From: Barthelona sp. PCE
Taxonomy: Eukaryota
Direction of reading: 5' to 3'
DNA: 64,000 nucleotides
Assembly: GCA_040285745.1 (NCBI GenBank)
Contig: JAUFOR010000006.1
Coordinates: 496,001 to 560,000, forward strand
In this document: in pieces, positions 19,929-52,390 of the stretch
Position numbering within the stretch: the first letter of the stretch is position 1
How the letters are laid out: each line of letters begins with the position of its first letter
The notes under the pieces: model-generated
Told to the model about the DNA's origin: nothing
Databases searched by the model: none
Seen by the model: only the letters and a program-made list of their open reading frames with translations
Position numbers and translations under genes: made by a program

Positions 19929-19932
19929 TAAA

Positions 19933-31167: not shown

Positions 31168-32760
31168 TCATTTCGCAAAGATGGCATACAGGCCGAGGAC
31201 CGAGAACGAGACGCCGGCGACGAGCATCATCCACGCGTACTTGCGGTGCTCGCGGTACCTGAGGCGCGTCGTGCGGCCCGGCCTTGTCAGCGACAGGAAC
31301 GACAGCGATGGCATCATGAAGACGACAAACGTCGACACAGTCGCGCCCGCGAACTGCAGGATGATTCCCAGGTCGGTTATTAGGAACGTCATACCGTAGC
31401 ACATCGCGACGACGACAACGATAAGCAGCTTGTACTTCTTCGTGTTGAAGATTCCCATGAAGATCGTCCTCGCGGCGTAGCAGATGATGGGGAACGACAG
31501 GCAAACGACGACAGACATGAAGAACTTGGCGAGGTAGACGGTGACGTGTGTCGGGTCGTAGTTGAGCAGCAGGTTTGGCTGGCATCCTGTTCCGAAGTGG
31601 AAGTATGCAAACATGCCGATTACGACGTAGAAGATGCCGTCGATTGAGATGGCGCGCTTGACGACCTTCTTCATCTTTGGCGTGGAGCGATGGTGCAGCT
31701 CCTCGTACATTTTGGGAATGTTCAGGTGCGCGCTGAAGATGAGAAGTAGGATCGACAGCCCGCTGATTGCGTGCTTGAAGCTGCGCGGGGCGATCAGGCT
31801 GAACGTATCGAGCCCGGGAAACCCGGAGTCAAGGCTTCGGAATATGATGATGAACGCGCATGCAATGACACCGACGATCGCGATCGAAGATGCGGTAGCC
31901 AGCGACTTGAGCGAGCGCAGCAATGACAGCGGGAGGAGGATTGTGATGACGATGACTCCCAACAAAAAGTTGCCTGACGAGTACCAGCCGGGTTCGACGA
32001 AGATCTCTACGAGTGGCGTGAAGTAGTCCTTGATGATGATCATGTACGCCGTCAGAAAGCACAGACAGAGCAGCGAGATGAAGAAGTCGACAACGCCGAG
32101 GACATAGCGCGGGAACGCCGCGACGAGGATATCCTTCCACGTGAACTTCTTACACATGTTGCAGCAGTGCGTGATCAGGATCATCGAGTAACCGGACATG
32201 ATGCCCAGGGCGATGACTGCGATGATTGTTGGGATGAACGACAGCAGCGAGAAGGCGTACGAGACCGAGAGGACGCCGGTGCCGACGAGGTTGTTCATGA
32301 GGTTGATTGTCTGGGCACGGACGGTCGTCGTGTGCTCGGCCGAGAACGACGGGGCTGCCATAGACACGCCGCGGATGCGGTGGACCTGGCTCCTGCCTGC
32401 GTCGTTGACATCCTCGTCGAGGTCGATCTGGATGAAGGAGCCCAGGCTGCCTGTCTTGGGGAAGAAGAAGGATGACGCCGACCTGAGGAAGCTGCCGGTG
32501 AACGACATGCGGCCCTCGTCCTTCTTCTCGACGTCCGACCCGTCTGTGTGCTCAGACTCGGTCTCAGACTCGGAAAGCCCGTTTGACTCGTCGTCTGTGG
32601 CTGGAACGATCAGCTTGACGGCGGTCTCGGCGTCTGACAGGATTTCTTCCGCCTGGATCTGCTGCTCGTCGGTCTCGAGCGGAGGTTCGTTGGTTGTGAT
32701 GCTCTCGAGGGTTCCCATCTCCTCCTCGACTGGGGACATGTGCGGTTCGATGTCGCTCAT
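31168..32760 (-). CDS. Amino acid transporter, AAAP/SLC38-like (Aa_trans) family, copy A (530 aa, intact)
   Basis: NLMNNLVGTGVLSVSYAF, ILLPLSLLRSLKSL, IFSAHLNIP, FPIICYAAR, GATVSTFVVFMMP; acidic N-terminal tail; start at MSDIEPHM. Confidence 0.92.
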   Translation of the reverse strand: MSDIEPHMSPVEEEMGTLESITTNEPPLETDEQQIQAEEILSDAETAVKLIVPATDDESNGLSESETESEHTDGSDVEKKDEGRMSFTGSFLRSASSFFFPKTGSLGSFIQIDLDEDVNDAGRSQVHRIRGVSMAAPSFSAEHTTTVRAQTINLMNNLVGTGVLSVSYAFSLLSFIPTIIAVIALGIMSGYSMILITHCCNMCKKFTWKDILVAAFPRYVLGVVDFFISLLCLCFLTAYMIIIKDYFTPLVEIFVEPGWYSSGNFLLGVIVITILLPLSLLRSLKSLATASSIAIVGVIACAFIIIFRSLDSGFPGLDTFSLIAPRSFKHAISGLSILLLIFSAHLNIPKMYEELHHRSTPKMKKVVKRAISIDGIFYVVIGMFAYFHFGTGCQPNLLLNYDPTHVTVYLAKFFMSVVVCLSFPIICYAARTIFMGIFNTKKYKLLIVVVVAMCYGMTFLITDLGIILQFAGATVSTFVVFMMPSLSFLSLTRPGRTTRLRYREHRKYAWMMLVAGVSFSVLGLYAIFAK

Positions 32761-33917
32761 TCGTGGGGTGCTTGTGATGCGCGAAAGTGGACGAAAAAGA
32801 GAGAATGCAGATTGTGGCGGGAGCTCCCAGCACGCGTCCAACGCACCTGTGTGGCGGGTGGGCCCATGCGCACTCCCCCCTGGGGCACCGGCGGGTCGCA
32901 CGGGGACGATTGCTGGGGGGAGATTCTATCAGATACAGGCCCAATCAAATCAACTCCCACCGCTCCGCTCCGCCCATAGCCGTCGCCCCTCGCCGTCGCA
33001 CCTGCCGCACAGCCGTGGAGCCCATGTAGTTCGTTGCGATGCCGTAAACCGCAATCAACATTCCAGCTGCATTCAAGCGCCCAGCCGCCCCCGTGGCCCG
33101 CCCGCAGCCACGCGCCCGCGCCCCAGGATGCGGGGGGACAAATGCGTCATTAAGTGCGATTCTCAATTAAGAGACGGAGGGGGTGCCTGCGCGGGTTCCA
33201 GCCCAGAAAGAACGCACCCTGTCAAGGCCGCCCACACCGGCGCAGCGCAGCGCTCCCACAAACCAACATTACTGTTTCCCGTTTTCTCACCCGTTTCGTA
33301 AGCAGCAACATGAGCAGAGTATCAATCAAGCCCGGCACACAGTACCCGGCCGCCACAGGCCTGTACGTCCTCGGCTCCGAACATGACGGCGCTCGCTCCT
33401 TCCTCGCCCTCAGCTGGTGCACTCGCTTCAGCAGCTCGCCCAAGAAGGCGCTGTGGGTCGCAGGCATCAACCGTCGCCACAACACGCTCGCAATGATCCG
33501 CGAGGTCGGTACCTTTTCTATGAGCATCGTCTCTCCCGACTGGGCTGACAAGGCCGACGCCATGGGCCTCAAGAGCTCCCGCGCCGTTGACAAGGCGTCG
33601 TTCGTGGACGGCATCGAGCACACAACGATGCTCAACATGCCTTTTCCCACAGAAGCTCGCGTCGTTATGGACTGCCGCCTGGTTGACATCAACGAGATTG
33701 AAGGCGTCCCGAACGCCATGGTCACGTTTGAGGTCGTTGGCGCCGAGGCCAAGGAGGAGTGCGTGCGGAACAGCGTATGCACACACGAGGCCGTCGATCC
33801 GCTCGTGTTCCTGATGGGCAACGACGGCAACGTGTACCACCGCCTCGACTTCTCGGAGGGCGGGTCGTACGTCGCCAATGCGTGGTCCGCTGGCCGTGCG
33901 ATCGTGCAGGCTGCTGA
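31175..33917. repeat. Inverted repeat arm A (2,743 bp, GC-rich)
   Basis: Reverse complement of 49641-52383. Translations are identical apart from four single-base indels seen by eye. Confidence 0.97.
32761..33309. promoter_or_regulatory. GC-rich bidirectional intergenic/promoter region between the transporter and flavoredoxin genes (copy B at 50249-50796)
   Basis: Lies between two divergent ATGs; up to ~78% GC in a sampled 60-mer; pyrimidine-rich tracts precede both ATGs. Confidence 0.55.
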
Positions 33918-33927
33918 AGAAAAATGA
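33310..33927 (+). CDS. Flavoredoxin / flavin reductase-like FMN-binding split-barrel protein, copy A (205 aa)
   Basis: YP..LYVLGS, LSWC, HNTLAMIREVGTFSMSI, ADAMGLKSSRAVDK, VMDCRLV, VDPLVF and terminal ANAWSAGR resemble prokaryotic flavoredoxins. Confidence 0.85.
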   Translation: MSRVSIKPGTQYPAATGLYVLGSEHDGARSFLALSWCTRFSSSPKKALWVAGINRRHNTLAMIREVGTFSMSIVSPDWADKADAMGLKSSRAVDKASFVDGIEHTTMLNMPFPTEARVVMDCRLVDINEIEGVPNAMVTFEVVGAEAKEECVRNSVCTHEAVDPLVFLMGNDGNVYHRLDFSEGGSYVANAWSAGRAIVQAAEEK

Positions 33928-34010
33928 TGATATTCTTGTAAATTACGTTTGTAAGAGTTTGATTTAACAAGCCAATCATAGCTAAATGTTTTTTACAGAA
34001 AAATTATACA

Positions 34011-34487
34011 CTATTTAATAGAAGGCATTTCTAAACCTCGTTTCCTTCGCATTTCAATTAACTTTTGATACTCTTGAGGAGTTAATTTAATACGAACGTT
34101 GCTTGCTGTTATAAGTTTCCTATTGGAATGTGTGGGAGAATCTTGATTGATTGGCATATCTAAAATCTTCTTGATTTGTGGGAGTTTACGTGGTGATGCA
34201 GACATCACCTTTGACGCGCTGATGTGGTTAATTAAGGCACTCATGGATCGATGAATAATGCATCTTATTTTTGAAAATTCGCAGATTAGTGGTGATCCAC
34301 AGTTTTTATGCTCGAAATCTACAATCATTTCAGACAACCGTCTTACTTCTTTAAGTAATTCTTCGCATTTATCGATGTTCTCTGTTTTCTGATTCAATAA
34401 ATGCTCAACACAATTATCTACCTCAATAGTGAACGAAGCGGCCTTTTCCAATGATTCCTCGGTCGGTTCTAAACAAAAAAGGTCCAT
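34011..34487 (-). CDS. Hypothetical protein (158 aa)
   Basis: ORF with plausible composition filling an otherwise empty slot; start set at MDLFCLEP. Confidence 0.6.
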   Translation of the reverse strand: MDLFCLEPTEESLEKAASFTIEVDNCVEHLLNQKTENIDKCEELLKEVRRLSEMIVDFEHKNCGSPLICEFSKIRCIIHRSMSALINHISASKVMSASPRKLPQIKKILDMPINQDSPTHSNRKLITASNVRIKLTPQEYQKLIEMRRKRGLEMPSIK

Positions 34488-34885
34488 AACCGTTGTGCAA
34501 AAAATGTAAAAGATAAAGAAAAGGAAAACAGATATCTGTGTCACTTTTTGATGTTCTGTCGCTGTTTTAACGTGGACGCGTGCGTGTGCAAAATAATGTA
34601 AATAGAAAATGAAAGAGTTGACAGTGTAACAATTTCAACCATTACTCCAACGTTGAGTGCATGTTGATGGCAAGGTAAAGTTATTAACGCTTAAAAAAGC
34701 ATTTTATTTACAATTCTTACCAGTTTATGCAGGTATATTTTCTTATTCTTTAACACGGATATAAGTGAAACCAGATCATAATGAACACCATATAGCTCAA
34801 AATTAACATATTATACTTATTGGACTATTTGTGTGGGTTGTTTTTTCTTTATTCCACCTTTTCACATTTCATAGCACCAATAATT

Positions 34886-35818
34886 ATGTCAGACGGTGTA
34901 GCTGCATGTTTTGGTAAAGTTGAGAATCGTCAATTGATACCAACCGAAGAGGGAGTGTTAAGGGTTTCTACAAGCTATAAACTGCTTCGACTCATTTTTG
35001 AGGTTAAGAAAGAGATTCTATTTGAGAAGACAATCCTCTTACCCTCCAGCATTTTGATAAAATCTATTTCTAAACGTTCAGATTCTGGTTCTCCACAGAT
35101 TTACAGGTTTATTTTTGATAATGGAACGGAATTTGAGGACAGTGCCTACTTTTTCTTCACAACAACAAATTCAGCTGTTGATCAACAATTTTTTACATAT
35201 TTGCAACAAAAAACAGCTTTAGAAACAAAATATTATTATAATGAAACATATTTTGGGCATGGTGACAGATCTATCTTTCATAAAATTAATCGACGCAGAA
35301 TATTAGGTGTACCTATGAATATTGATGATGAAGAATTTGCGGAACATTTACGAGCACTGGTAGATATGGGCGGCAGAAGACGTTCCAGACAGGAAGTTGA
35401 CTATCCACCTCAAGATATGAACTTCTCAAACTTTTTATTGGGTGTTGTTGAACATTTGCAATCGAATAATGTGAATATTACAGAGGAAGAAAATGGTAAT
35501 TTGAGAGCAATGCTTCCTGCAACTGTTGCAGGCTCACCAGATAGATTAGATAGTACATTTAATAGCCCTTCTTTTAGAGATTTTCTGCAAATATTTAATG
35601 AAACTTTAGAATCAGGACAATTAGGTTATTATTCCGGTGAATTTGGCTTTCCTAATCATACTCTTGATAATTCCCAATCACTTATGAATCACTTAGTAAG
35701 AGAGCAACCAAATTTTCAGAATCAAAGGAGACGTGCAAGAGATGATGAAAATGAAGAAGAATATGATGAAGAGAATGACATTGTTTTGCCACCTCATCCA
35801 GCATGTGATATGCAATAG
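34886..35818 (+). CDS. RPN13: Proteasome ubiquitin receptor Rpn13/ADRM1-like
   Basis: N-terminal Pru-like strands (GKVENRQLIP..EGVLRV, YFFF) and C-terminal DEUBAD-like LP......TFNSPSFRDFLQIFNETLESGQLG....FGF. Confidence 0.75.
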   Translation: MSDGVAACFGKVENRQLIPTEEGVLRVSTSYKLLRLIFEVKKEILFEKTILLPSSILIKSISKRSDSGSPQIYRFIFDNGTEFEDSAYFFFTTTNSAVDQQFFTYLQQKTALETKYYYNETYFGHGDRSIFHKINRRRILGVPMNIDDEEFAEHLRALVDMGGRRRSRQEVDYPPQDMNFSNFLLGVVEHLQSNNVNITEEENGNLRAMLPATVAGSPDRLDSTFNSPSFRDFLQIFNETLESGQLGYYSGEFGFPNHTLDNSQSLMNHLVREQPNFQNQRRRARDDENEEEYDEENDIVLPPHPACDMQ

Positions 35819-35860
35819 TTCAAAAAATTTGTTATAGTAAAACTCACCTTCACATATCCA

Positions 35861-38044
35861 ATGCTTTCGACTCAGCTGGATTTTGAGGATGAGAATGAAC
35901 TTCGCACTATTTCAACCACGCAAATGGTGAATGTAGAAGAGGAACCGCAAGAAGAACAAAGGATGAGTTTTGCGGAACGATATGGGGAGTTATTTAAGAA
36001 GTATTCAGAGAGCGCAGACATCTTCGGTATCGACATTACTGGTATTTTGGAGACCTTTAGGAACCAAGCTGAAGAAATTAATGCAGAATTGAACTACTTT
36101 GTTCGCGCCGCCTGGATCATTGAAAGCTCAGCGTTCCAGTATGCAAGGAAGGTGGAAACGCTTTCTAAACGTGTTAACAAACTTCAAACTCAGTTATATG
36201 GTGTTTTCACAGATTCGTCACTTAATGAGGAAGAAACAAAGGAAAATGGTGGCAAAAAGGGAAAAAGGCGAAACAAAGACGGTTTTTGTAAGGGTAACCA
36301 CAGTGAAATTAATCTTAAGAAATCTCCATTATCTGTGTTTAATGATATTACCAAAAAGCGTGTACCATTCCTCATTCGTTCATCAGCAAATGTAAGTACC
36401 CAGACTCATAGGCAGAAGCTGCTTAACTGTGATCTTTTGAGAGCAGATTTTGTTGAGACAGGTGTGCTGGACATTATCAAGCATTATAGTTTCAGTACAT
36501 CTATAGATCCAGTGCTATTGAACCCCCAAATACCAGAGAGTACAAAAACAGAAAAAAGTTTGGAAGAAATCCAAAGTGAAGAAACAGTTGATATTGAACA
36601 AATGGCTATTCGTTCCAGTTCATTCATTGATTATAAAACCCCTGTTAGGGGAGTCGCTACACCCAGGGCCCCATTGACAGAACGCACACCTGGCGGCCCA
36701 GCTGGATTGTTTGAAGTAGAGAATTATGTTGCTTCTGAAGCTGTTGCTTCTGAAGCTGTTGAATCTGAAGATTCTGTTCAGCCTGTTGATGATGATGTTA
36801 TACCTGATATTCCAGATTTTGACATAATGGATAGCATTGATGTGGACCCTGATAATTCAACACCTTTATTAATGACGCCTGTTCCAGTTGTTGAAAAACC
36901 TAAACCTACTCGAGTGTTGCCCCAGAAAATGAGGGATGATGCAAGAGAATCGCAGGAAAAAGCTTTTGCTTTGTATGAACCGCATGTTGTACAAAAATCA
37001 AAACCATTTGTGCTTGGAAACATTCCAGAGAAGCCTGATTTCCTTAAACATATTCAACAAGAGAAGCGAAAGACTAAGGATATTCAAAAATTACTTACAA
37101 ACGTTAAGCGTTCAACATTGTTTAACGTTGAGTTAGAACCGTTCTTCAGGAAGATACAGAAACGTCAGAGAAAGGAAAAAGCAGCTTTTAGACGGAAGAA
37201 GATGAAAGAAGAACGTGACAGAGTTGCAGAAAGTGGTGAAGATGATGTTGAAGCTGTTGAAGTGCCAGCTGTTTCTCTCACATCAATTTTTGCAAATGTC
37301 ACACCTGGTAACATACCAAAGAAGGCCAGTTTGGTGTCTGATTTGACAGAAGAACCTTCTAACGAGTTCTTTAATATTGATGACGATGATACATTGTCGT
37401 ACAATAAGAACGATGCTGAAAGGACGCCCATGCCCCGTATACGTCTAGATCTTACAGCTGAAACAGAGGAAACTCCCATGAAACAAGATAGCAGAATGCG
37501 TGAGTATTATGTTAAGTTGATGGAAGCACGTGCTGAGCAAATTTCACGTCAAAAACGTGTCAGATGGCAAGAACGTGTCGATACTTGGCGCAATAAGCTG
37601 GAGTTGAGGATGGAGAAGGAAAAACGTCGACGCCACTTTGACATTACTCAATACAGAACAGAGATCGCACAAGACATTGCTATCAAACTTGAACATAAAC
37701 AGGAAGCTGAAAAGACTGTTAATGAGGAAAGAGATGTAGAGAGTGAGAATATTGATAGTGAAGAAGAAAATTATAACCCACTTGCTGAAATGGAAGGTTT
37801 TGAAGAATATTCATCTTCACGTAAGGATAAAAGGGAGAGATTTGTTGTCAATAACACAATTTCATTGCAGAATGTTTTTGAAGACAAGTCACGAGAAGAT
37901 ATCTCAAGAAATTTCTTAACAATGCTGCAGTTGTGCAATGAAGGGCGCATATCTATGGATGAAGATGATGTGGTCGTGCTTGAAAATACAGATAAGCTTA
38001 AAAACTTGGAACTATTGGATTTAGATTTGAGCGATGGCGAATAA
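35861..38044 (+). CDS. NCAPH2: Condensin II kleisin subunit CAP-H2
   Basis: N-terminal FVRAAWIIESSAFQYARKVETL and C-terminal W..R...W, FDITQY, ISRNFLTMLQLCNEGRI are kleisin-beta signatures. Confidence 0.85.
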   Translation: MLSTQLDFEDENELRTISTTQMVNVEEEPQEEQRMSFAERYGELFKKYSESADIFGIDITGILETFRNQAEEINAELNYFVRAAWIIESSAFQYARKVETLSKRVNKLQTQLYGVFTDSSLNEEETKENGGKKGKRRNKDGFCKGNHSEINLKKSPLSVFNDITKKRVPFLIRSSANVSTQTHRQKLLNCDLLRADFVETGVLDIIKHYSFSTSIDPVLLNPQIPESTKTEKSLEEIQSEETVDIEQMAIRSSSFIDYKTPVRGVATPRAPLTERTPGGPAGLFEVENYVASEAVASEAVESEDSVQPVDDDVIPDIPDFDIMDSIDVDPDNSTPLLMTPVPVVEKPKPTRVLPQKMRDDARESQEKAFALYEPHVVQKSKPFVLGNIPEKPDFLKHIQQEKRKTKDIQKLLTNVKRSTLFNVELEPFFRKIQKRQRKEKAAFRRKKMKEERDRVAESGEDDVEAVEVPAVSLTSIFANVTPGNIPKKASLVSDLTEEPSNEFFNIDDDDTLSYNKNDAERTPMPRIRLDLTAETEETPMKQDSRMREYYVKLMEARAEQISRQKRVRWQERVDTWRNKLELRMEKEKRRRHFDITQYRTEIAQDIAIKLEHKQEAEKTVNEERDVESENIDSEEENYNPLAEMEGFEEYSSSRKDKRERFVVNNTISLQNVFEDKSREDISRNFLTMLQLCNEGRISMDEDDVVVLENTDKLKNLELLDLDLSDGE
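36728..36772 (+). repeat. In-frame 15-bp tandem repeat (2 perfect + 1 degenerate unit) encoding VASEA-VASEA-VESED
   Basis: gttgcttctgaagct x2 then gttgaatctgaagat, inside the CAP-H2 linker. Confidence 0.85.
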
Positions 38045-38149
38045 ATTTTTATTATCAACTAGTTTCAAGGTTCATGAGCGTTTCCAACAGTACTAACAAA
38101 TTTCAAAATCCGAAAGGAACTGGTTTCAACTATTTCATTTTATTCCGGC

Positions 38150-39025
38150 ATGTTGTCTTCTTCGGACACTATTATGATGGTCGCGCTGACAGCGTGGAAC
38201 GTCTTATCACACATTTCCATTTCGTTTTTGTTGCTACCTAAACTCATTTCTAATGTTTTTCTACTTTTTCTTTTTGAGATAATTATGACTTTCTTTTGGG
38301 TAACAGGGACTGTATCTCATTGGAGATCCGCAAAAACGGATCCAGGAATTGTTCCTGTGGGATACAAACCTGAATTTGAACCAAATCGATTTGATAACGA
38401 AGATTTGGCTAAAGTAGCATCATTGTATCATCCCACATATTGTGATAAGTGTGATAGGTGGCGTCCTCCTCGCGCTCATCATTCACGTGATGCAAGAGCT
38501 TGTGTAATGAAATATGATCATTATTGTCCTTTTGTGGGAAATGTTGTTGGAGCAAAGAATGAAAAATATTTTCTGTTGTTCACATTTTATGCTATGGTTC
38601 ATCAAGTTGTAGGATTCTTTTTAAGTATATTTTATTTGATGATAACTGCTGAATCAAAAGCTAAAGATGATAGCAACTATATGGTTCTTGTTGCTTTTTC
38701 TTTGTGGATGTTTTTTATCTTTGGATTCAGTTCTGGTAGTATGTTTTTTAATCAAATGAGTTTAATAATTCGTAACATGTCGGGTGTTGATAGAGTTATT
38801 TTAAAAAAAGCTCTCAGATTAATTAGAAACGGTGAATTGTCCATTAAAGCGTTGTTAGAAGCAGAACCAAATATAGTACGTGTGGGTAATGATGAATTCA
38901 GACGTAATTTGAAGTATTATTTTGGTGAAGGTGGATTTTTTTCACATATTATTCCCAAAAAACGTCAGCATCGTGTTTTACCTCATTATTTGATTCATAA
39001 CGAGCCATTTTATGAGATGGTGTAA
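38150..39025 (+). CDS. DHHC-family palmitoyltransferase (DHYC variant)
   Basis: TDPGIVP, CDKCDRWRPPRAHH, CVMKYDHYCPFVGNVVG..NEKYFLLF; four TM helices. Confidence 0.92.
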   Translation: MLSSSDTIMMVALTAWNVLSHISISFLLLPKLISNVFLLFLFEIIMTFFWVTGTVSHWRSAKTDPGIVPVGYKPEFEPNRFDNEDLAKVASLYHPTYCDKCDRWRPPRAHHSRDARACVMKYDHYCPFVGNVVGAKNEKYFLLFTFYAMVHQVVGFFLSIFYLMITAESKAKDDSNYMVLVAFSLWMFFIFGFSSGSMFFNQMSLIIRNMSGVDRVILKKALRLIRNGELSIKALLEAEPNIVRVGNDEFRRNLKYYFGEGGFFSHIIPKKRQHRVLPHYLIHNEPFYEMV

Positions 39026-39046
39026 TCAAAACACACGTTTATTAAT

Positions 39047-41053
39047 TTATATACGCTCAAAAATTGAAAATAATTCTTTGTTGTTAGAGATTCTCTTTAT
39101 CACTTTTGAAACATTATGAACAGTAATCTTTGCTGTTTTCTTAATGAGCGGGAATACAATAGCCTGGATTTGAGGTAAAGTATACTGATATTCATACTTT
39201 GATTCGAAACTATATGGTAAAAAAAATTCAACCAATGTTTTAATTGATGTTTTCAATGCCAATAATTCAGATTCGAAGTTTGTGTCCAACAGCAGTTTAA
39301 ATATTAACTCAGGAAGAGCTAAATGATGTGGATCTACACAAGGAATTATTTGTGGAATACTAATTAACTTTTTTTCTTCTGGATCCATTGTAATACCTAA
39401 CAAAGTCTCAAAGAATCTATGCTGACGTTCCAAACGATCCATACCAATGTTTATAATATCTGTATCAATTTTTCCAAAACGATTCATACATGTTTCTTCT
39501 AAAGCTTCACGAATATCCAAATTTTTTTTGAAAATTAGCAATGGAAATGATGGAGCGAATCGTAAAATATGTTGGAACAAAGCCAAATTCAATAAATTTC
39601 TGAAAGAAGCTATGTATAAAGTATCATCACTTTGAAGAAATAAAAAATCTTCTTCAAACCCCAAGCAAGTTGAATTTTCAAGTATTTTATGGGTATTTTC
39701 ATCATCTTTATCAACAATTTGTTCCAATAATTCCTCAAAACTATCTCTACCTGCAAAACAAGTTTGCACATCTGAAAAATGCGGAATATTATTCACAAAA
39801 CTACTTCCAAATGAAATACGAGGTCCAGGAGCTATTTTCCTATCCTTTGGAACATATGTAACATAACTATCTAGAGTTTTTTGTTTATGGTCAACATGCA
39901 CATGACTATAATCTTCTCTTCCACTCGGTTTGTTCTTCTTTTGAGCTTTTTTCGGTGGTTCTGATAATGATACATGTTCATCTTTGTGCTTTCGGGCTGG
40001 AAAATAATTATCAATAGTCTTCTGAACATCTATATGTTGTGTTGCACTAACTTTTTCAATCATGCAATCAATACATGAAACTAAGTATTCATGCAGCTTC
40101 TTGACGATAAGGTGTTCAAATAAGAGCTGTACAAACAGCTTATTAGGATGAATATTAACATCAACCTCGTTACCCGGCACAGTTAATGAACAAAGCACAA
40201 TAGGAAGCTTATGTTTAATGAAAGTACTGTACAATGATTTAAAACACTCTGTAAATGCTGGGATATGCACTCTCCTTTTGTTAACAAATAAAGAAAGAGC
40301 TTTTATGCGAACTCCACCATATTTAAGACTAAATTGACGTTCATCTAATAGGGAATCTGGTGAACTTACAAAAACATTAGCTGTGAACTTTGGTGTTTCT
40401 GAATTTAACTCAAAGAATGGCAGATCAGACCCACAAATCTGAAAAATACGAAATTTTGCTTGAGATACACTTCTAAATACGCACACTGAGGAGCCATTGA
40501 TGATCAAACTATAAGATATCAGAGGGTTGTTGATAGAAAAATCACAAATACACTGTACTAAACTATTCTTATCATTTGTAACTCTATGCGAGAATAAACG
40601 ACCGAATAAATCATTAACACGAACAGTGGTGCCAGTTTCACGGATACAATCGCTATATTCAATGAGTTTTCCGTTCTTAAAAACACCTTCCCAACCTACA
40701 GATTCGTTTTTATGCTGTGATGATATGTAGACGTTACTCACGCAACTGATTGCGTAAAGAGCTTCCCCTCTGAAGCCAAAAGAATGGATATCATCAATAT
40801 CCTTAAAGTCAACAATCTTTGATGTCGCATGTCTTGCACAGACATTATCTTTATCATTTTTACGAATCCCTTCCCCATTATCCGTAATCTTAAAGTTGAT
40901 ACATGCAACTGAATCAAGCTCTACTACAATATTTGTGGCTTTAGCATCCATACTATTTTCAATAAGTTCTTTTATCGCAGATTTAGCTGAAGTTACAACC
41001 TCCCCAGCTGAAATAAGACCAATGACATCATCGCTTAATCGTTGAATAGACAT
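39047..41053 (-). CDS. MLH1: DNA mismatch repair protein MLH1
   Basis: GHKL ATPase motifs ISAGEVV, KELIENSMDA, DNGEGI, HATSKI, FGFRGEAL, VDVNIHPNK; ends LFSIFERI, equivalent to the MLH1 FERC terminus. Confidence 0.92.
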   Translation of the reverse strand: MSIQRLSDDVIGLISAGEVVTSAKSAIKELIENSMDAKATNIVVELDSVACINFKITDNGEGIRKNDKDNVCARHATSKIVDFKDIDDIHSFGFRGEALYAISCVSNVYISSQHKNESVGWEGVFKNGKLIEYSDCIRETGTTVRVNDLFGRLFSHRVTNDKNSLVQCICDFSINNPLISYSLIINGSSVCVFRSVSQAKFRIFQICGSDLPFFELNSETPKFTANVFVSSPDSLLDERQFSLKYGGVRIKALSLFVNKRRVHIPAFTECFKSLYSTFIKHKLPIVLCSLTVPGNEVDVNIHPNKLFVQLLFEHLIVKKLHEYLVSCIDCMIEKVSATQHIDVQKTIDNYFPARKHKDEHVSLSEPPKKAQKKNKPSGREDYSHVHVDHKQKTLDSYVTYVPKDRKIAPGPRISFGSSFVNNIPHFSDVQTCFAGRDSFEELLEQIVDKDDENTHKILENSTCLGFEEDFLFLQSDDTLYIASFRNLLNLALFQHILRFAPSFPLLIFKKNLDIREALEETCMNRFGKIDTDIINIGMDRLERQHRFFETLLGITMDPEEKKLISIPQIIPCVDPHHLALPELIFKLLLDTNFESELLALKTSIKTLVEFFLPYSFESKYEYQYTLPQIQAIVFPLIKKTAKITVHNVSKVIKRISNNKELFSIFERI

Positions 41054-41120
41054 ACAAAAATTCCCTGCAAAAAAAGGTTAGAAACAAATAAACACATTTC
41101 TATGTCGCTAATAATAAGAA

Positions 41121-42658: not shown

Positions 42659-42702
42659 TTAAAATAATGCAGTGATATGGTTATAAAAAAAAATTACATA
42701 TT

Positions 42703-44325: not shown

Positions 44326-45552
44326 ATGACTGATAACACTACATCAACAGTAGTCACAGCAAAATGCAGGTATCTTGTTGCAGATGCTGGTACGTTCTTT
44401 CGTCCAGACGTTCAACTGCACTTGTTAGCTGAGAATATTTGCACAACACCGGGCGTTATTGCAGAGGTTCGCGACCGCGTCTCCAGAGATCGTCTGGCGT
44501 CGAACCCAGCACTGGGAATTACAGGATTAGATATTGTTGAACCTTCTCAAGAAGCTATCCAATTTATTCGTCGTTATGCACATGCTACAGGTGACTTATC
44601 TGTACTTTCAGAGGTAGATATGGGGGTGGCAGCACTAGCATATGACGTAACTAAACAGTACGATAAGTCTCGTAACATTCGGCCTATGCCTGAGCAATCC
44701 TATTTGGAGGATGCACAATTGATCACAGCCCTCCCCAAGCGGAATAAGGTTCTTAAGGGTGTATTTGATGAAGACGGTTTCCGTGTATTCACAAAAGATA
44801 CATCAAGTCGTCAAGAACGTAAGATTGAGCGCATTCAACAAGAACAAACACAAGAGGAGGCTGAAGCTGAAACTTGTGAGAACGTTGAAGAGCAAGAAGA
44901 AGCAAAAGAAGAAGCTTTGGAATTTGAGCTTGATGATGAAGATATGGAAATTGATGATAATGCTTGGATTACAGAATACAACGTAGAAGAACATCTCAAC
45001 CGTGATGCAGGAAACCAACCTGAGAAGAAAATTAAGCAAATTAAAGTGGCAACAATGACAGGTGATTTAGCATTGCAGAATCTTTTAGTTCGAATGGCTT
45101 TGGTAATTATTGGTACACAAGGACAAAAAATTACTAAATTTAAGAGCTTTATTCTAAGATGTCGTTCTTGTAGCAGAGTTGAACGTAATATGAGAAGAGT
45201 TTTTTGTGGTAGCTGTGGATACCAAAGTTTAGAAAGAACTCCTTATTATATTGATAAAAAAGGTAGAATGAGATTGCCTCCAATTAGATCACGCACTCTA
45301 AAAGGAATTCAGTACGATGCTCCAATGCCGAAAGGCGGCAGAACTAATATTGTCTGGAATGAAAGTGAATTATTACGTCGTAATCCTCATGCTTATAAGG
45401 AACCTAAGAACAGAACAAAAGGATATGATCCCAACGTCAGCTCACATGTGAAACAAACTCGTTCACATAGAGATGTTCAAGTTGGTCTTGGTAGGCGTAA
45501 TCCAAACATCCCAAAGAAACGTCATCACAAAAAGAAGAAATCTAGACGTTAG
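44326..45552 (+). CDS. NOB1: 20S pre-rRNA endonuclease NOB1
   Basis: PIN motifs VADAG, VIAEVRD, TGDLSVLSEVD, WIT..N, TGDLALQN; zinc ribbon CRSC...FCGSCG; terminal GRRNPN. Confidence 0.93.
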   Translation: MTDNTTSTVVTAKCRYLVADAGTFFRPDVQLHLLAENICTTPGVIAEVRDRVSRDRLASNPALGITGLDIVEPSQEAIQFIRRYAHATGDLSVLSEVDMGVAALAYDVTKQYDKSRNIRPMPEQSYLEDAQLITALPKRNKVLKGVFDEDGFRVFTKDTSSRQERKIERIQQEQTQEEAEAETCENVEEQEEAKEEALEFELDDEDMEIDDNAWITEYNVEEHLNRDAGNQPEKKIKQIKVATMTGDLALQNLLVRMALVIIGTQGQKITKFKSFILRCRSCSRVERNMRRVFCGSCGYQSLERTPYYIDKKGRMRLPPIRSRTLKGIQYDAPMPKGGRTNIVWNESELLRRNPHAYKEPKNRTKGYDPNVSSHVKQTRSHRDVQVGLGRRNPNIPKKRHHKKKKSRR

Positions 45553-45553
45553 A

Positions 45554-46996
45554 TTATCCAAGTCGTTCTAATGATTTAAATAAAGCATATATAGCAGTTT
45601 TCCATTGCATTTTTTCTTCAATTGAATCAAAACGAATTGTTAATTGTCGTCCCTTATCCACCAACATCATCGTAATACATCGTTCTTCATTTTCAAGGTC
45701 TAAATTATTTGAACCATCAACACATGAAGTGACTGTCTCAGCTCTCCATTCTGATGATGTTCTACGCTTTGCCCAAGCAATTTGACATCTTTCGGGGATA
45801 AATACGAGATATCTTCTGCGTAGCTTAAATTTCGTAGTCCATTTGGTGACCATACATCCTCTTGTAGTAAAATCTAATGCTTCACGTACTTCGGGTGTAA
45901 TTAAATCTTCCACCGATGGTGTTTCAGAGTGTGTTTCAATTGTTTCTACGAGGATATCTCCAGTATCACTTCCAGTGGGCGACATTAGCAATTTCCCATC
46001 AAAATCAACTGCAGGAGGGCTTAGAGAACCAGCTTCTGGATTTAAGCTGAACCTTGAAGTCTGAGAGAAGTTGTATGAGTGTGGACTTACATTAACGGAT
46101 GAAGATTGTGGAGTTAACTCAAGTTCTTTTTCAAGAAAATCCAGATCCATAGGTAATTTTGAAGGTAAAATTACATTATCAGGAGTACCCGCTTCGTTAG
46201 GCATGAAATTGATCTCCAAAACTTCTTTATCCTCTAAAATTGGTTGTGTTAACGATATAGAATCTAATATGGAACCACTCAACAAATCATCACTAGTTCT
46301 GGCATTCTCCTCTTTCAAACGTTCACGTTCTCTTTTCCTCAACATCTTTTTTCGCAGTTTCTGCCTCTTTAAATCTTCTTCACGAATTTCTTTTATCTTT
46401 TCTTGCAAACTAGAAAGATTTTTCTGAATCTCTTTTTCTTTTTCTGCTTCAGCTTTTTCTTTCTTCAGTTTCTCTTCAAGTTCTATCTTTGCAGCTTCTC
46501 TTTTCTGTTCCTCAACCTCGGCAAGCTTCTTCATTGAAGCTTCAGGCAATTGAACTTCAATGTTATTCAACTCTCTATTTCTTTGTTGACGCTGTTTAAA
46601 ACTTGCCCTGAGCTCACTACGCATCTTTGCAGGTGTGCGTTTCTTCCTCAGTTCCTCCTCGTGTTCAAAACGAGTTGTTGGAGTAAATGAAAAAGATTGT
46701 GATTTTCCTTGATCTGGGTTCTCTACCTCCTTAATTGGTGTTTTTTGCTCTGGGGTCGGTCGCCTTACAAGTTTTCTACGAGAAGAACTTTTTTGAATGA
46801 CACCTTTTCGAGAATTTGTCTGAAATGGAAAATGGTTGGTCGCAATTTCACCGTCAGGTAAAGCTTCGTCAAAAGTTTGTTGTTGCTTTTTCTCTCTTCG
46901 AACAGCTTTCTTCAAAGAAGAATGTATAATGTCCAAATTAGGTTCCATTATATGTATTTTCTCATGCAAAGACTCTAAACCTGGTCGAAAACTCAT
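45554..46996 (-). CDS. Coiled-coil protein with C-terminal PH-like domain
   Basis: Charged coiled coil followed by G.MVTKW.....RRRYL...IAW...RQLTIRFDSIEEKMQWKTAI (terminal PH helix Trp). Confidence 0.7.
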   Translation of the reverse strand: MSFRPGLESLHEKIHIMEPNLDIIHSSLKKAVRREKKQQQTFDEALPDGEIATNHFPFQTNSRKGVIQKSSSRRKLVRRPTPEQKTPIKEVENPDQGKSQSFSFTPTTRFEHEEELRKKRTPAKMRSELRASFKQRQQRNRELNNIEVQLPEASMKKLAEVEEQKREAAKIELEEKLKKEKAEAEKEKEIQKNLSSLQEKIKEIREEDLKRQKLRKKMLRKRERERLKEENARTSDDLLSGSILDSISLTQPILEDKEVLEINFMPNEAGTPDNVILPSKLPMDLDFLEKELELTPQSSSVNVSPHSYNFSQTSRFSLNPEAGSLSPPAVDFDGKLLMSPTGSDTGDILVETIETHSETPSVEDLITPEVREALDFTTRGCMVTKWTTKFKLRRRYLVFIPERCQIAWAKRRTSSEWRAETVTSCVDGSNNLDLENEERCITMMLVDKGRQLTIRFDSIEEKMQWKTAIYALFKSLERLG

Positions 46997-47059
46997 GCCC
47001 AACAATTGCAATTAATGAAAATGGATAAATATGTTTTTACAAGAAATATGCTACAAATC

Positions 47060-48418
47060 CTACTTCTTATTCAAATAAGCGGAAAAGGTACGTTTAGAGT
47101 GTTCTTTCTTTAATTCTGTGGCTCTGTTCGTACGTGGAGGTCTAAAACTAACAGGTCTAGAGGGTTTCTCAATCACAATGGGATCCTGGAACAAATCGCT
47201 AATTGTGATATCTTGGCGTTTAGTAGGCATACCTGCAACACCATTTTGCTTCTTCATAAGAAGCTTCTTAGGCTTACCTAATTCAGAACGAGTTAATAAT
47301 GCATTTCTCTTTCTGAAATAAGTTGTGCGATCTTCAACAATAACAGGTCCTTTAACACTCTTAGGTGAACCAGGAACATGTAATCTCTTTGTTAAAGTTA
47401 ACCATCTGTTGGGTGAAATGTTATCATTAATAACACCAGCTTTGAGCTGTGCTTCTCTTCCTAAAGCTTCAACGTGACTCCAACGTTCTAATTCAGGCCA
47501 AAGAGGGGATTCCCTCAGAGGACCAACAATAGAAAGAATGCTTTCAGGATCAGGTACATGACGCTCCAAGAAAAGCATGTAATTTAATTGTTCACCTTCA
47601 CCACATGATCGAACAATAGCTTCCAACTCTTTCTGAGTGAATGCAACATGGAAAAGCCTTAGGAGTGATTTGAAAACTCTGATATTGATATAATGAGTAT
47701 TTTGAACATCTGTAAGACGACAATTTTTAGCCAAACTTTCAACTTTTCCTAAAATTCTTTTCTTAAGTAAAAATTCGTCACCTTCTTCAAGATTCTCTCT
47801 GTAGAATGGTGATTCAATAAAACTTGGTCCTAAAGGAGAAGGATTAGCATATTCTGGACGATTAGTAATTGAAGTAGCAAAAGAGCTTCCAATAGAGGCA
47901 GAAGCTTCAGATGTAGAGCGTGAATGATCGGCAACATGGCTTTCAACAGACTTATGTGATACAGATGCATGTTCTTCATGTTCTTCAATGTTAACAGGTG
48001 TAGCAGTTTTGGGAACTGCAACCCTGAGCATAAGATCATAAACAGAAGGGTTGATTGTAATGTTCCTTGTGGGATGCCATTCAAAAGAGAGGTTACGCGT
48101 AAACGCATTCCAATCCAATTGTTCGCCATCACCAAATACTTCAAGTGCGGCATAAAGATCAGGTTTGTGAATATCGCAATCTGATTCTTTGATGATCCCT
48201 ACAAGAGTTTCGAAAGGAATATGACGAGTTCTATTCGGATCAGAAGCCTTACAAGCTTTACGGATTTGTGAACGTTTTGCACGGAAAATGAGGCGTAATT
48301 TCGCGGTTCCCTCGTCGTCTCCTTCATGAACCTGTGTGACCACGGAGATATCGGTTTTCAAACTGCTTAAATCGCTGATATAGCTTTGAACATCCATTGG
48401 TAAATTCTCAATCGACAT
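47060..48418 (-). CDS. Protein with two degenerate EF-hand pairs
   Basis: ACKASDPNRTRHIPFE...LDWNAF and NCRLTDVQNTHYINIRVF...LNYMLF form an internally repeated EF-hand-like unit; start set at MSIENLP. Confidence 0.65.
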   Translation of the reverse strand: MSIENLPMDVQSYISDLSSLKTDISVVTQVHEGDDEGTAKLRLIFRAKRSQIRKACKASDPNRTRHIPFETLVGIIKESDCDIHKPDLYAALEVFGDGEQLDWNAFTRNLSFEWHPTRNITINPSVYDLMLRVAVPKTATPVNIEEHEEHASVSHKSVESHVADHSRSTSEASASIGSSFATSITNRPEYANPSPLGPSFIESPFYRENLEEGDEFLLKKRILGKVESLAKNCRLTDVQNTHYINIRVFKSLLRLFHVAFTQKELEAIVRSCGEGEQLNYMLFLERHVPDPESILSIVGPLRESPLWPELERWSHVEALGREAQLKAGVINDNISPNRWLTLTKRLHVPGSPKSVKGPVIVEDRTTYFRKRNALLTRSELGKPKKLLMKKQNGVAGMPTKRQDITISDLFQDPIVIEKPSRPVSFRPPRTNRATELKKEHSKRTFSAYLNKK

Positions 48419-48436
48419 CGTTTTATGTTCTTTGGG

Positions 48437-48485
48437 CTGTGGAGAGACAGTAAAGATATACAAGTGAAAGAAAAAGGTGTAAAAC
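48437..48485 (-). other. Candidate 49-nt 5'-UTR intron of the EF-hand gene
   Basis: GG|GTTTTA...TTTAC-TGTCTCTCCACAG| ending 18 nt before the ATG at 48418. Confidence 0.35.
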
Positions 48486-48890
48486 CCGGTTACATGAAAG
48501 AATTTTAGAACCTTTTTTCTTCTCCGTTCCAAGTTAATTCTCAAAGGTTAAGGCTTTTATTAGAGCCTTTAGGTGACCAGAATCCCTTTAAATTTTGTAA
48601 AAACTCTGTATATATTGATATTTCTTTTACTCATCATATGACTTCTTTATTGTGATTTTACCTTGTTCAATCGGAATATTATGATATATTAATACGTATT
48701 AATCACATATTATTCCATAAAACCAGTTATTCACAACTATTGAGTTTAGCACATGAATTTGACCGTTGATATTCAAATTGTTGACATTTCACGGAGATAT
48801 TATCAAAAAATCGACGTGTCCCAAAACAAATATAGTCAAAAGATTTGTTTTTGCAAATAGTAACCATTTCACTCTGATTTCGTGGGCAAA

Positions 48891-49472
48891 ATGTCAGAAA
48901 TGATTGAGCGAACCTTACGCGTTCGACAGGTAGCAATGCCTAAGCGGGTAAAAGTGCTCACAGTAGGCGACGTTAAAACGGGAAAATCTGCACTTATAAA
49001 GCAGTATTGTGAGAATAGATTCGTGTCACAGTATCTCATGACAATTGGGATTGACTACGGGGTTAAAGTAGTTAAGCACAATTCAAGCATGTACCATCTA
49101 AATTTCTGGGATTGCTCAGGTTTACCTGAGTTTACTGATTGTAGGATCGAGTTCTACAGCGATTGCAACGTCATTGTACTCGTCTTTGACTACACATGCC
49201 CAGATAGTTTTGATAATCTTACCAGTTGGATTGGTGAGATCAGACAGGTCGTATCAACACTTCCACCCATAATTCTTGTTGGAAATAAGGCAGACCTTAC
49301 TGGTAGAGCAAGGAAAGGTACGGTAAAAGAAAAGCAAGTTGCAGAATTTTTGAACAGATTTAAATTTCCTTTCTTTAAGACTTCTGCTTCCACTAATGAA
49401 GGTATACAAGCCTTATTTGATGAAATATTAAACATAGCTGAAGAACAAACAGCTCTTCCAAGTATAAGATGA
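48891..49472 (+). CDS. RJL-family (Rjl/DNAJC27-like, no J domain) small GTPase
   Basis: GDVKTGKSALIKQYCENRFVSQYLMTIGIDYGV, WDCSGL (no catalytic Gln), IEFY, NKAD, TSA; no CAAX box. Confidence 0.85.
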   Translation: MSEMIERTLRVRQVAMPKRVKVLTVGDVKTGKSALIKQYCENRFVSQYLMTIGIDYGVKVVKHNSSMYHLNFWDCSGLPEFTDCRIEFYSDCNVIVLVFDYTCPDSFDNLTSWIGEIRQVVSTLPPIILVGNKADLTGRARKGTVKEKQVAEFLNRFKFPFFKTSASTNEGIQALFDEILNIAEEQTALPSIR

Positions 49473-49633
49473 TGGATATAAATATAGTGACGTTGATTAA
49501 GTTCACGCATATAGAGATTATTCAGTGTTTTACAAAGTGTCAAAACATAAGATATTTGTTGTGATGACCCTTCTGGCCAATAAAAAAGATATTTTAAAAC
49601 TGTTTTTAATTATTTATTAATGAGGACAACCTG

Positions 49634-50248
49634 CTACTCATCAGCAGCCTGCACGATCGCACGGCCAGCGGACCACGCATTGGCGACGTACGACCCGCCC
49701 TCCGAGAAGTCGAGGCGGTGGTACACGTTGCCGTCGTTGCCCATCAGGAACACGAGCGGATCGACGGCCTCGTGTGTGCATACGCTGTTCCGCACGCACT
49801 CCTCCTTGGCCTCGGCGCCAACGACCTCAAACGTGACCATGGCGTTCGGGACGCCTTCAATCTCGTTGATGTCAACCAGGCGGCAGTCCATAACGACGCG
49901 AGCTTCTGTGGGAAAAGGCATGTTGAGCATCGTTGTGTGCTCGATGCCGTCCACGAACGACGCCTTGTCAACGGCGCGGGAGCTCTTGAGGCCCATGGCG
50001 TCGGCCTTGTCAGCCCAGTCGGGAGAGACGATGCTCATAGAAAAGGTACCGACCTCGCGGATCATTGCGAGCGTGTTGTGGCGACGGTTGATGCCTGCGA
50101 CCCACAGCGCCTTCTTGGGCGAGCTGCTGAAGCGAGTGCACCAGCTGAGGGCGAGGAAGGAGCGAGCGCCGTCATGTTCGGAGCCGAGGACGTACAGGCC
50201 TGTGGCGGCCGGGTACTGTGTGCCGGGCTTGATTGATACTCTGCTCAT
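49634..50248 (-). CDS. Flavoredoxin / flavin reductase-like protein, copy B (204 aa)
   Basis: Identical to copy A except the C-terminus (AADE* versus AAEEK*). Confidence 0.85.
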   Translation of the reverse strand: MSRVSIKPGTQYPAATGLYVLGSEHDGARSFLALSWCTRFSSSPKKALWVAGINRRHNTLAMIREVGTFSMSIVSPDWADKADAMGLKSSRAVDKASFVDGIEHTTMLNMPFPTEARVVMDCRLVDINEIEGVPNAMVTFEVVGAEAKEECVRNSVCTHEAVDPLVFLMGNDGNVYHRLDFSEGGSYVANAWSAGRAIVQAADE

Positions 50249-52383
50249 GTTGCTGCTTACGAAACGGGTGAGAAAACGGGAACAGTAATGTTGGTTTGTG
50301 GGAGCGCTGCGCTGCGCCGGTGTGGGCGGCCTTGACAGGGTGCGTTCTTTCTGGGCTGGAACCCGCGCAGGCACCCCCTCCGTCTCATTAATTGAGAATC
50401 GCACTTAATGACGCATTTGTCCCCCCGCATCCTGGGGCGCGGGCGCGTGGCTGCGGGCGGGCCACGGGGGCGGCTGGGCGCTTGAATGCAGCTGGAATGT
50501 TGATTGCGGTTTACGGCATCGCAACGAACTACATGGGCTCCACGGCTGTGCGGCAGGTGCGACGGCGAGGGGCGACGGCTATGGGCGGAGCGGAGCGGTG
50601 GGAGTTGATTTGATTGGGCCTGTATCTGATAGAATCTCCCCCCAGCAATCGTCCCCGTGCGACCCGCCGGTGCCCCAGGGGGAGTGCGCATGGGCCCACC
50701 CGCCACACAGGTGCGTTGGACGCGTGCTGGGAGCTCCCGCCACAATCTGCATTCTCTCTTTTTCGTCCACTTTCGCGCATCACAAGCACCCCACGAATGA
50801 GCGACATCGAACCGCACATGTCCCCAGTCGAGGAGGAGATGGGAACCCTCGAGAGCATCACAACCAACGAACCTCCGCTCGAGACCGACGAGCAGCAGAT
50901 CCAGGCGGAAGAAATCCTGTCAGACGCCGAGACCGCCGTCAAGCTGATCGTTCCAGCCACAGACGACGAGTCAAACGGGCTTTCCGAGTCTGAGACCGAG
51001 TCTGAGCACACAGACGGGTCGGACGTCGAGAAGAAGGACGAGGGCCGCATGTCGTTCACCGGCAGCTTCCTCAGGTCGGCGTCATCCTTCTTCTTCCCCA
51101 AGACAGGCAGCCTGGGCTCCTTCATCCAGATCGACCTCGACGAGGATGTCAACGACGCAGGCAGGAGCCAGGTCCACCGCATCCGCGGCGTGTCTATGGC
51201 AGCCCCGTCGTTCTCGGCCGAGCACACGACGACCGTCCGTGCCCAGACAATCAACCTCATGAACAACCTCGTCGGCACCGGCGTCCTCTCGGTCTCGTAC
51301 GCCTTCTCGCTGCTGTCGTTCATCCCAACAATCATCGCAGTCATCGCCCTGGGCATCATGTCCGGTTACTCGATGATCCTGATCACGCACTGCTGCAACA
51401 TGTGTAAGAAGTTCACGTGGAAGGATATCCTCGTCGCGGCGTTCCCGCGCTATGTCCTCGGCGTTGTCGACTTCTTCATCTCGCTGCTCTGTCTGTGCTT
51501 TCTGACGGCGTACATGATCATCATCAAGGACTACTTCACGCCACTCGTAGAGATCTTCGTCGAACCCGGCTGGTACTCGTCAGGCAACTTTTTTGTTGGG
51601 AGTCATCGTCATCACAATCCTCCTCCCGCTGTCATTGCTGCGCTCGCTCAAGTCGCTGGCTACCGCATCTTCGATCGCGATCGTCGGTGTCATTGCATGC
51701 GCGTTCATCATCATATTCCGAAGCCTTGACTCCGGGTTTCCCGGGCTCGATACGTTCAGCCTGATCGCCCCGCGCAGCTTCAAGCACGCAATCAGCGGGC
51801 TGTCGATCCTACTTCTCATCTTCAGCGCGCACCTGAACATTCCCAAAATGTACGAGGAGCTGCACCATCGCTCCACGCCAAAGATGAAGAAGGTCGTCAA
51901 GCGCGCCATCTCAATCGACGGCATCTTCTACGTCGTAATCGGCATGTTTGCATACTTCCACTTCGGAACAGGATGCCAGCCAAACCTGCTGCTCAACTAC
52001 GACCCGACACACGTCACCGTCTACCTCGCCAAGTTCTTCATGTCTGTCGTCGTTTGCCTGTCGTTCCCCATCATCTGCTACGCCGCGAGGACGATCTTCA
52101 TGGGAATCTTCAACACGAAGAAGTACAAGCTGCTTATCGTTGTCGTCGTCGCGATGTGCTACGGTATGACGTTCCTAATAACCGACCTGGGAATCATCCT
52201 GCAGTTCGCGGGCGCGACTGTGTCGACGTTTGTCGTCTTCATGATGCCATCGCTGTCGTTCCTGTCGCTGACAAGGCCGGGCCGCACGACGCGCCTCAGG
52301 TACCGCGAGCACCGCAAGTACGCGTGGATGATGCTCGTCGCCGGCGTCTCGTTCTCGGTCCTCGGCCTGTATGCCATCTTTGC
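49641..52383. repeat. Inverted repeat arm B (2,743 bp, GC-rich)
   Basis: Reverse complement of 31175-33917. Confidence 0.97.
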
Positions 52384-52390
52384 AAAGTGA
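50797..52390 (+). pseudogene. Amino acid transporter copy B, frameshifted as assembled (+1 T in run 51589-51594); may be an intact gene with a sequencing error
   Basis: Same protein as copy A, split over two frames; T6 here versus T5 (A5 at 31964-31968) in copy A. Confidence 0.5.

Follow-up and report, generated by a model that had tools for sequence, protein, structure and literature searches.

A GC-rich inverted gene pair in Barthelona sp. PCE, a candidate product of GC-biased gene conversion

An inverted repeat with two divergent genes

Here we describe a GC-rich inverted repeat in the genome of the protist Barthelona sp. PCE, located in a 64,000-nucleotide (nt) stretch of contig JAUFOR010000006.1 (positions 496,001 to 560,000 of the forward strand; assembly GCA_040285745.1). 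This whole stretch is referred to as the window, and all coordinates count from its first letter. Arm 1 of the repeat, an identity tract of 2,743 nt with a GC content of about 0.60, spans 31175..33917, and arm 2, its reverse complement, spans 49641..52383. The arms are separated by a single-copy spacer of about 15.7 kb (33918..49640; GC 0.30-0.41) with 11 ordinary eukaryotic open reading frames (ORFs) of at least 150 residues, among them an RPN13-like protein, condensin-II CAP-H2, a DHHC palmitoyltransferase, MLH1, PRPP synthetase, NOB1, and a Ras-family GTPase. A repeat search returned five collinear inverted segments linking 31167-33920 to 49638-52391, and when aligned globally, the two arms differ by four 1-nt indels and by no substitution over 2,743 nt. 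The initial annotation of this DNA had described the arms as reverse complements with exactly these limits, which holds for substitutions; the single-base indels had been overlooked. A perfect reverse complement of 2.7 kb cannot have arisen by chance. The window contains no other repeat pair save one 31-nt chance match, and the internal repeats of the arm region are only three trivial short tandem arrays. A mobile element was also considered and rejected, since the repeat ends inside coding sequence and terminal repeats were not seen.

Each arm holds a cassette of two head-to-head genes with 549 nt between their start codons. Copy 1 of the first gene (31168..32760, minus strand) is intact and encodes 530 residues from the ATG at 32760, with a GC3 (the GC content of its third codon positions) of 0.84, and copy 2 (50797..52390, plus strand) has its frame broken, as assembled, by an extra A at 51594. 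The protein matches Aa_trans (PF01490) with 146.8 bits (cut-off 25.6; E = 9.7e-43) over profile positions 1-409 of 410, its best match among solved-structure sequences is SLC38A9 (9.1e-10), and it begins with an acidic extension of 140 residues. Judged by these matches, it is an SLC38-like amino-acid transporter; copy 1 has a 100% match in an NCBI protein that carries the label Barthelona sp. PCE. The second gene encodes 205 residues in copy 1 (33310..33927, plus strand; ending EEK-TGA; GC3 0.80) and 204 in copy 2 (49634..50248, minus strand; ending DE-TAG; GC3 0.81). It matches Flavin_Reduct (PF01613) with 64.3 bits (cut-off 27; 1.8e-17), and its best matches among solved structures are named flavoredoxin (3bnk, 2.4e-11; 2d5m, 9.8e-06), which identifies it, at the level of homology, as a flavoredoxin-like flavin reductase. 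Its protein cluster has two member sequences. The labels transporter and flavoredoxin, given at the outset, are borne out for both genes by family profiles above their cut-offs and by the structures matched. The divergent intergenic region, which we treat as a shared promoter region, is 549 nt long with 63% GC in copy 1 (32761..33309), and copy 2 (50249..50796) carries three of the four 1-nt indels. No Rfam match reached the gathering score in the arms, this GC-rich promoter region included, and the whole window contains no tRNA.

The published account of the PCE assembly describes base-calling of nanopore R9.5 reads by Albacore, their assembly by ABruijn, polishing by Nanopolish, and then Illumina correction via Unicycler (PMC11316075). 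Given as arm 1/arm 2 positions, the indels are A5 versus A6 at 31963/51594, within the transporter coding sequence (CDS), and, in the intergenic region, C6 versus C5 at 32875/50683, one extra T at 33170/50387, and T3 versus T2 at 33275/50283; three of the four lie in homopolymers, and the extra T at 33170/50387 lies outside any. All four are most likely uncorrected nanopore errors, because four indels with zero substitutions are unlike real divergence, and because short reads, to judge from the assembly methods, map to two places and cannot polish the repeat. Both transporter copies would therefore be intact, and the arm-2 frameshift is probably an assembly error rather than the mark of a pseudogene. 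The public 518-residue model of the arm-2 transporter runs out of frame for about 32 residues and then regains the frame. The public arm-1 model has 598 residues and starts 68 residues upstream of the ATG used for the other copy (32761-32964, minus strand); the extra residues read through the GC-rich promoter region, which has no stop codons there, and the start is likely over-extended.

Ends of the identity tract and the composition step

The identity between the arms ends within three codons of each stop codon, and on the transporter side it ends 7 nt short of the CDS end. The last codons of transporter copy 1, which lie outside the tract (31168..31174, minus strand), are GCG AAA TGA, and those of copy 2 (52382-52390, plus strand) are GCA AAG TGA. 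Both copies thus end in Ala-Lys-stop, and both synonymous sites have changed, giving two differences in 6 nt directly beside 2,743 identical nt. The flavoredoxin tails are GAA GAA AAA TGA in copy 1 and GAT GAG TAG in copy 2. All of these terminal codons had been read correctly in the initial annotation, as had the unrelatedness of the 3' untranslated regions: local alignments of the 3' flanks had scores of 16 and 16 where shuffled sequences averaged 19.0 and 19.9, with no residual similarity. The homology just outside the tract is far more diverged than that inside, though the sample is small, at 2-3 codons per end. By simple arithmetic, an unrelated flank would encode Ala-Lys-stop by chance with a probability of about 1e-4.

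Because the tail codons differ beside 2,743 identical nt and the flanks cannot be aligned, the copies appear to be old and their identity secondary. Gene conversion bounded by the limit of homology would follow from copies that are old yet identical within the tract. We hold it very probable, from the sequence of the two arms and their ends, that this is an old inverted duplicate homogenised by gene conversion. Continual conversion and one recent whole-arm event on an old pair look the same in a single genome; of the earlier description of the pair as old yet continually homogenised, the age and the homogenisation are supported by the diverged tails and unalignable flanks, and the word continually is unproven.

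The composition of the arms changes at the same places. GC content is 0.401 over the whole window, 0.383 when the arms are left out, and 0.597 within the arms, with coding GC of 0.58 and 0.62. GC3 is 0.80-0.84 in the arm genes versus 0.22-0.53 in the 27 other window genes, and the 549-nt promoter region has a GC content of 0.63 versus 0.20-0.36 in 24 other window spacers, each of at least 21 nt. The step falls within one 60-nt bin at each end of the arm: on the left, GC rises from 0.30 to 0.67, and on the right it drops from 0.72 to 0.22-0.35, with 60-mers of the flank at 0.22-0.42. GC3 in bins of fifty codons is 0.74-0.90 in all 15 bins, with no fall toward the ends. Sliding GC and GC3 profiles, proposed initially as a check, accordingly show abrupt steps and a flat, high GC3 across the tract. 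The GC island coincides with the identity tract, and both stop near the stop codons. The coding GC of about 58% first estimated for the arms agrees with the measured values, and the 78% first given for the intergenic region corresponds to its richest single 60-mer (0.77), the mean being 0.63.

The dinucleotide signature of the arms is outside that of all 112 host windows (delta* 0.138 versus a maximum of 0.117), and the observed/expected ratio of CpG is 1.18 in the arms versus 0.75 in the host. This signature does not discriminate between explanations, because weak-to-strong (A/T to G/C) transitions, which turn TpA into CpA or TpG and then into CpG, predict the same shift as foreign origin. 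In the single-copy part of the window CpG (0.75) and TpA (0.70) are both depleted.

Origin of the GC island

Several features of the cassette resemble the host. The GC contents at first and second codon positions, the contents of Gly, Ala, Arg and Pro (GARP) and of Phe, Tyr, Met, Ile, Asn and Lys (FYMINK), and the ratio R/(K+R) of both proteins fall inside the range of the other window genes or at its edge; the composition shift is confined to silent sites. There, the choice of G/C-ending codons follows the host's choice of A/T-ending codons by transition, with GTT becoming GTC, GGT becoming GGC, CGT becoming CGC, and NCA becoming NCG. Across the four-fold families, C/(C+G) in the cassette correlates with T/(T+A) in the host (Spearman 0.83, p = 0.010, n = 8) and is uncorrelated with the host's own C/(C+G) (rho -0.10). 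Two codon models of one parameter each were compared over the 735 codons: host usage plus weak-to-strong transitions (q = 0.75) reached a log-likelihood of -653.9, versus -670.7 for a tilt toward G/C-ending codons. For reference, host usage alone gave -1100.9 and a saturated model -597.1.

The promoters also look host-like. In a survey of the 80 nt upstream of the window's start codons, TTTTCT was found upstream of 10 of 27 genes (1.8 expected) and TTTCTC upstream of six (0.9 expected). Both cassette promoters keep such T-rich motifs just upstream of the ATGs, and TTTTCTCAC lies about 27 nt 5' of the flavoredoxin ATG. Across the window, T-rich motifs (TTTTCT, TTTCTC, and TTTCTCAC / TTTCACAC) are enriched 20-50 nt 5' of many start codons and are a candidate core promoter or initiator element. 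The pyrimidine content of the sense strand of the promoters is within the host range and is uninformative.

Searches for relatives found nothing close. The best non-self relatives of the transporter are 23-26% identical (two protein searches, in which five and six proteins passed), and the three Atlas clusters nearest to it consist of Eukaryota at 100%. A search of 1.84 billion representatives gave 107 matches at E up to 0.001 for the flavoredoxin, the best non-self match being 29% identical (E 7.5e-13), and the nearest named relatives of this protein are prokaryotic flavin reductases. DNA related to the cassette was sought in two metagenome scans (66 and 144 pattern matches) and in one scan of prokaryote genomes (91 pattern matches), none of which was confirmed. 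A GC-rich donor carrying the cassette at near identity, raised initially as a possibility, was likewise looked for and not found; no relative closer than 34% identity turned up for either protein. A bacterial donor for the whole cassette is rejected on the ground that the transporter is of eukaryote type. Because genes of different ancestry and the promoter between them share one composition, a regional process fits better than one transfer. A laterally transferred island finds no support here: these searches found no close donor sequence, and protein composition and codon choice are host-like. Several tests of the sequence thus point to a cassette that is native rather than foreign.

We propose that a native two-gene unit, divergent from one 549-nt promoter region, was duplicated long ago in inverted orientation, leaving the copies about 15.7 kb and 11 genes apart. 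Conversion between the arms would then have overwritten one copy with the other across both CDSs and the promoter, halting at the limit of homology, no more than three codons from either stop. If mismatch repair in the heteroduplex favours G/C, changes from A/T to G/C would reach both arms more often than changes the other way. In this way roughly three in four of the codons ending in A/T, along with much of the promoter, would have moved to their transition partners, taking silent sites from about 30% to 80-84% GC as the proteins stayed host-like. GC is indeed raised at the silent and non-coding sites of the tract, as GC-biased gene conversion predicts, with an excess that translational codon selection does not explain. 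The proposal as a whole, with an old inverted duplicate, conversion, and a GC bias that caused the island, is in our view somewhat more probable than otherwise. GC-biased conversion, already put forward in the initial annotation, agrees with all tests run; it is favoured over foreign origin and codon selection because of the host-like amino acids, the transition-shifted codons, the use of NCG, and the lack of any relative above 34% identity. It is plausible as the cause of the island and the best single explanation, though unproven.

Several points weigh against this proposal. It draws on a single genome, in which identical arms offer no differences to polarise. GC3 stays flat up to the ends of the tract, where short conversion tracts should leave a gradient. 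The force needed is large: to go from a neutral GC of 0.28-0.34 to 0.80-0.84 takes a bias B of about 2.0-2.6, or a G/C transmission of 0.89-0.93 per event if one event decides the fate of each mutation. The bias of about 0.70 reported for primates would give only about 0.5 GC in this one-event model (PMC8981503). In Paramecium, the high GC of converting paralogues was judged to be a cause of their retention and not a consequence (PMC4199370). The arm dinucleotide signature outside the host range is also expected of foreign origin, the codon tests were post hoc and rest on 735 codons, and the arm identity rests on a single nanopore-based assembly. Amplification of a conversion bias at the level of the population would also need recombination between chromosomes and a large population, and to our knowledge sex has not been described for the barthelonid lineage.

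The cassette could instead have been GC-rich beforehand, whether it came from a GC-rich eukaryote not yet sampled or from some GC-rich region of its own genome, with conversion only keeping the arms identical or acting more readily on GC-rich DNA. This would account for a composition step that is sharp and flat to the edges and for the unusual dinucleotide signature, and it agrees with the judgement on cause and consequence in Paramecium (PMC4199370). The flavoredoxin family is mainly prokaryotic, so that gene was acquired at some depth, and, with protist genomes so poorly covered, failure to find a donor says little. We nevertheless consider prior GC richness unlikely. The amino-acid composition is that of the host and not of a GC-rich genome, the codon choice mirrors the host's by transitions, host-type T-rich motifs are present in the promoters, a eukaryote-type and a prokaryote-type gene have the same composition, and nothing more than 34% identical was found. 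The diverged tails and unalignable flanks also imply a long residence, during which an AT-biased genome should have eroded GC that was not maintained.

Selection for G/C-ending codons or GC-rich transcripts, through high expression or mRNA stability, would leave conversion to explain the identity only, and we regard it as improbable. Two likely highly expressed genes do have the top single-copy GC3 values, the ribosomal uL11 gene (15986-16498, minus strand; 0.53) and the Gpr1/Fun34/YaaH channel gene (15153-15770, plus strand; 0.50), suggesting some expression-linked bias toward C. However, the GC3 of 0.80-0.84 in the cassette is far above that of the ribosomal-protein gene, the non-coding promoter region is GC-rich as well, and the cassette uses NCG, CTG, GGC and CGC codons that uL11 and Gpr1/Fun34 avoid, with NCG making up 73 of 186 NCN codons in the cassette versus 1 of 87 in those two genes. 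Codon optimisation was rejected on the NCG codons and the GC-rich promoter. As an observation on the host, the uL11 and Gpr1/Fun34/YaaH genes strongly avoid NCG, CTG and GTG and prefer T- and C-ending codons, which hints that, in this genome, expression is linked to a bias for codons ending in T or C. It is highly improbable that the segment was duplicated very recently and never converted, its identity reflecting youth. Such a duplication would explain the zero substitutions, but not why the tract ends on both sides no more than three codons from a stop codon, nor the GC island; it was ruled out by the tail codons, since an unrelated flank would rarely supply the same Ala-Lys-stop, and since ends at both stop codons with synonymous erosion do not fit a recent event, as the initial annotation had argued. 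That the repeat is an assembly artefact, produced by inserting a contaminant fragment twice or by polishing diverged copies into identity, has in our estimate hardly any chance of being right, even with a nanopore R9.5 assembly corrected by Nanopolish and Illumina reads (PMC11316075) and four 1-nt indels left in the arms. Unique protist genes flank both arms on both sides in one contig, the reading frames at the ends of each arm run on into tail codons and a stop of their own, and the transporter is of eukaryote type. In addition, 2.7 kb should be short enough for long reads to span, and random placement of short reads would not be expected to erase real differences systematically.

A stronger form of GC-biased conversion is somewhat less probable than not. 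Here the arm-to-arm bias would be very strong, with an effective B of about 2.4, or at least 0.9 G/C transmission at each event, and a two-copy palindrome of 2.7 kb would have driven about 75% of A/T-ending codons and the promoter to G/C. A shift made by transitions, with the equilibrium between C and G not yet reached, would then mean that the process is recent or ongoing. If so, few nuclear two-copy repeats would match this locus in the strength of their biased-conversion signature, and the lineage would need to have either a very large population that recombines sexually or a mismatch repair with an unusual bias. If the GC island is a product of biased conversion at all, it would be a very clean natural gauge of the bias, with two copies only, sharp limits, and coding and non-coding sites that respond together. 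The rate and bias of conversion in metamonads could then be estimated directly from a few strains or sister species. There are also two practical warnings: islands of this kind resemble foreign DNA in composition-based screens for contamination or gene transfer, and repeats of this size retain nanopore indels, which break gene models.

Genomic setting and comparison with known systems

The window is apparently a compact, intron-poor region of a eukaryotic nuclear genome. The PCE assembly is reported to have 10.2 Mb in 8 contigs, with 40.3% GC, 4.46% repetitive sequence and 5,064 proteins, and to be among the smallest genomes of free-living eukaryotes (PMC11316075); in the main text of that paper the terms gene conversion, flavin, and amino acid transporter do not occur. 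By Pfam profiles, the long ORFs of the window include a diphthamide synthase, a protein kinase, V-ATPase subunit d, a PI3/PI4-kinase, condensin subunits, MLH1, NOB1, a Ras-family GTPase, an Spt6-like SH2 protein, and RRS1, and their products are, on the basis of these profiles, ordinary eukaryotic proteins. All three stop codons are in use among the window genes. Gene packing is extreme: the convergent ORFs at 23192-24229 (plus strand) and 24223-25404 (minus strand) share 7 nt (24223-24229), and two further convergent pairs are separated by gaps of 4 nt (19929-19932) and 1 nt (45553). Five long ORFs, all on the minus strand, lack any Pfam match at E up to 0.001: 143-2872 (909 residues), 3219-9569 (2116), 52522-57507 (1661), 45554-46996 (480), and 47060-48418 (452). 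The GC3 values of the 2116- and 1661-residue ORFs, 0.45 and 0.44, are the highest of the long genes. The MLH1 homologue, of the MutL family of mismatch-repair proteins, lies at 39047-41053 (minus strand) in the spacer between the arms. The organism thereby encodes part of the machinery needed for heteroduplex repair, and the position of the gene between the arms is probably a coincidence.

The closest described system is that of the primate sex-chromosome palindromes, where Jackson et al. (2021) report that GC-biased conversion leaves the arms GC-richer than their flanks, with an inferred G/C bias of about 0.70 for the X palindromes (PMC8981503). As in Barthelona, the arms are inverted and nearly identical (above 99% in primates, with intrachromosomal conversion), and their GC exceeds that of the single-copy flanks with non-coding sequence included (PMC8981503). 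The two differ in scale, however. Primate arms measure tens to hundreds of kb, whereas those of Barthelona measure 2.7 kb and are bounded by two stop codons, and the GC excess over the flanks is about 5 points in primates (46.3% versus 41.2%) but about 21 points overall in Barthelona (0.597 versus 0.383) and about 50 at silent sites (PMC8981503). The primate bias was also measured with outgroups, while here a bias is proposed from one genome (PMC8981503).

A second parallel is found in old paralogues from the yeast whole-genome duplication, in which conversion is restricted to coding regions (Fawcett and Innan 2011, PMC3924837). The review explains this by purifying selection, which would hold coding sequences close enough for conversion to go on (PMC3924837). 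In both cases conversion reaches no further than the coding sequence, and no homology can be detected in the non-coding flanks. Unlike the yeast duplicates, Barthelona would convert two adjacent genes and their promoter as one unit, the copies are inverted and 16 kb apart on one chromosome, and the shift in composition is extreme (PMC3924837).

Among the titles and abstract openings surveyed for Barthelona and Giardia, none describes a GC island of converting inverted duplicates in metamonads. Elsewhere, GC enrichment is said to have been found in a converting multigene family by Galtier in 2003, for mammalian histones, and reportedly also occurs in a converting repeat, the plastid inverted repeat. 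In Hsp70 and in yeast or Arabidopsis duplicates, the copies that exchange sequence are GC-richer at silent sites. These families and plastid repeats mostly involve many copies or organelle genomes, with modest shifts, whereas the repeat described here is a two-copy nuclear one in an AT-rich protist. The Barthelona locus belongs to a known type of process, that of converting GC-rich duplicates, and is an unusually extreme case of it.

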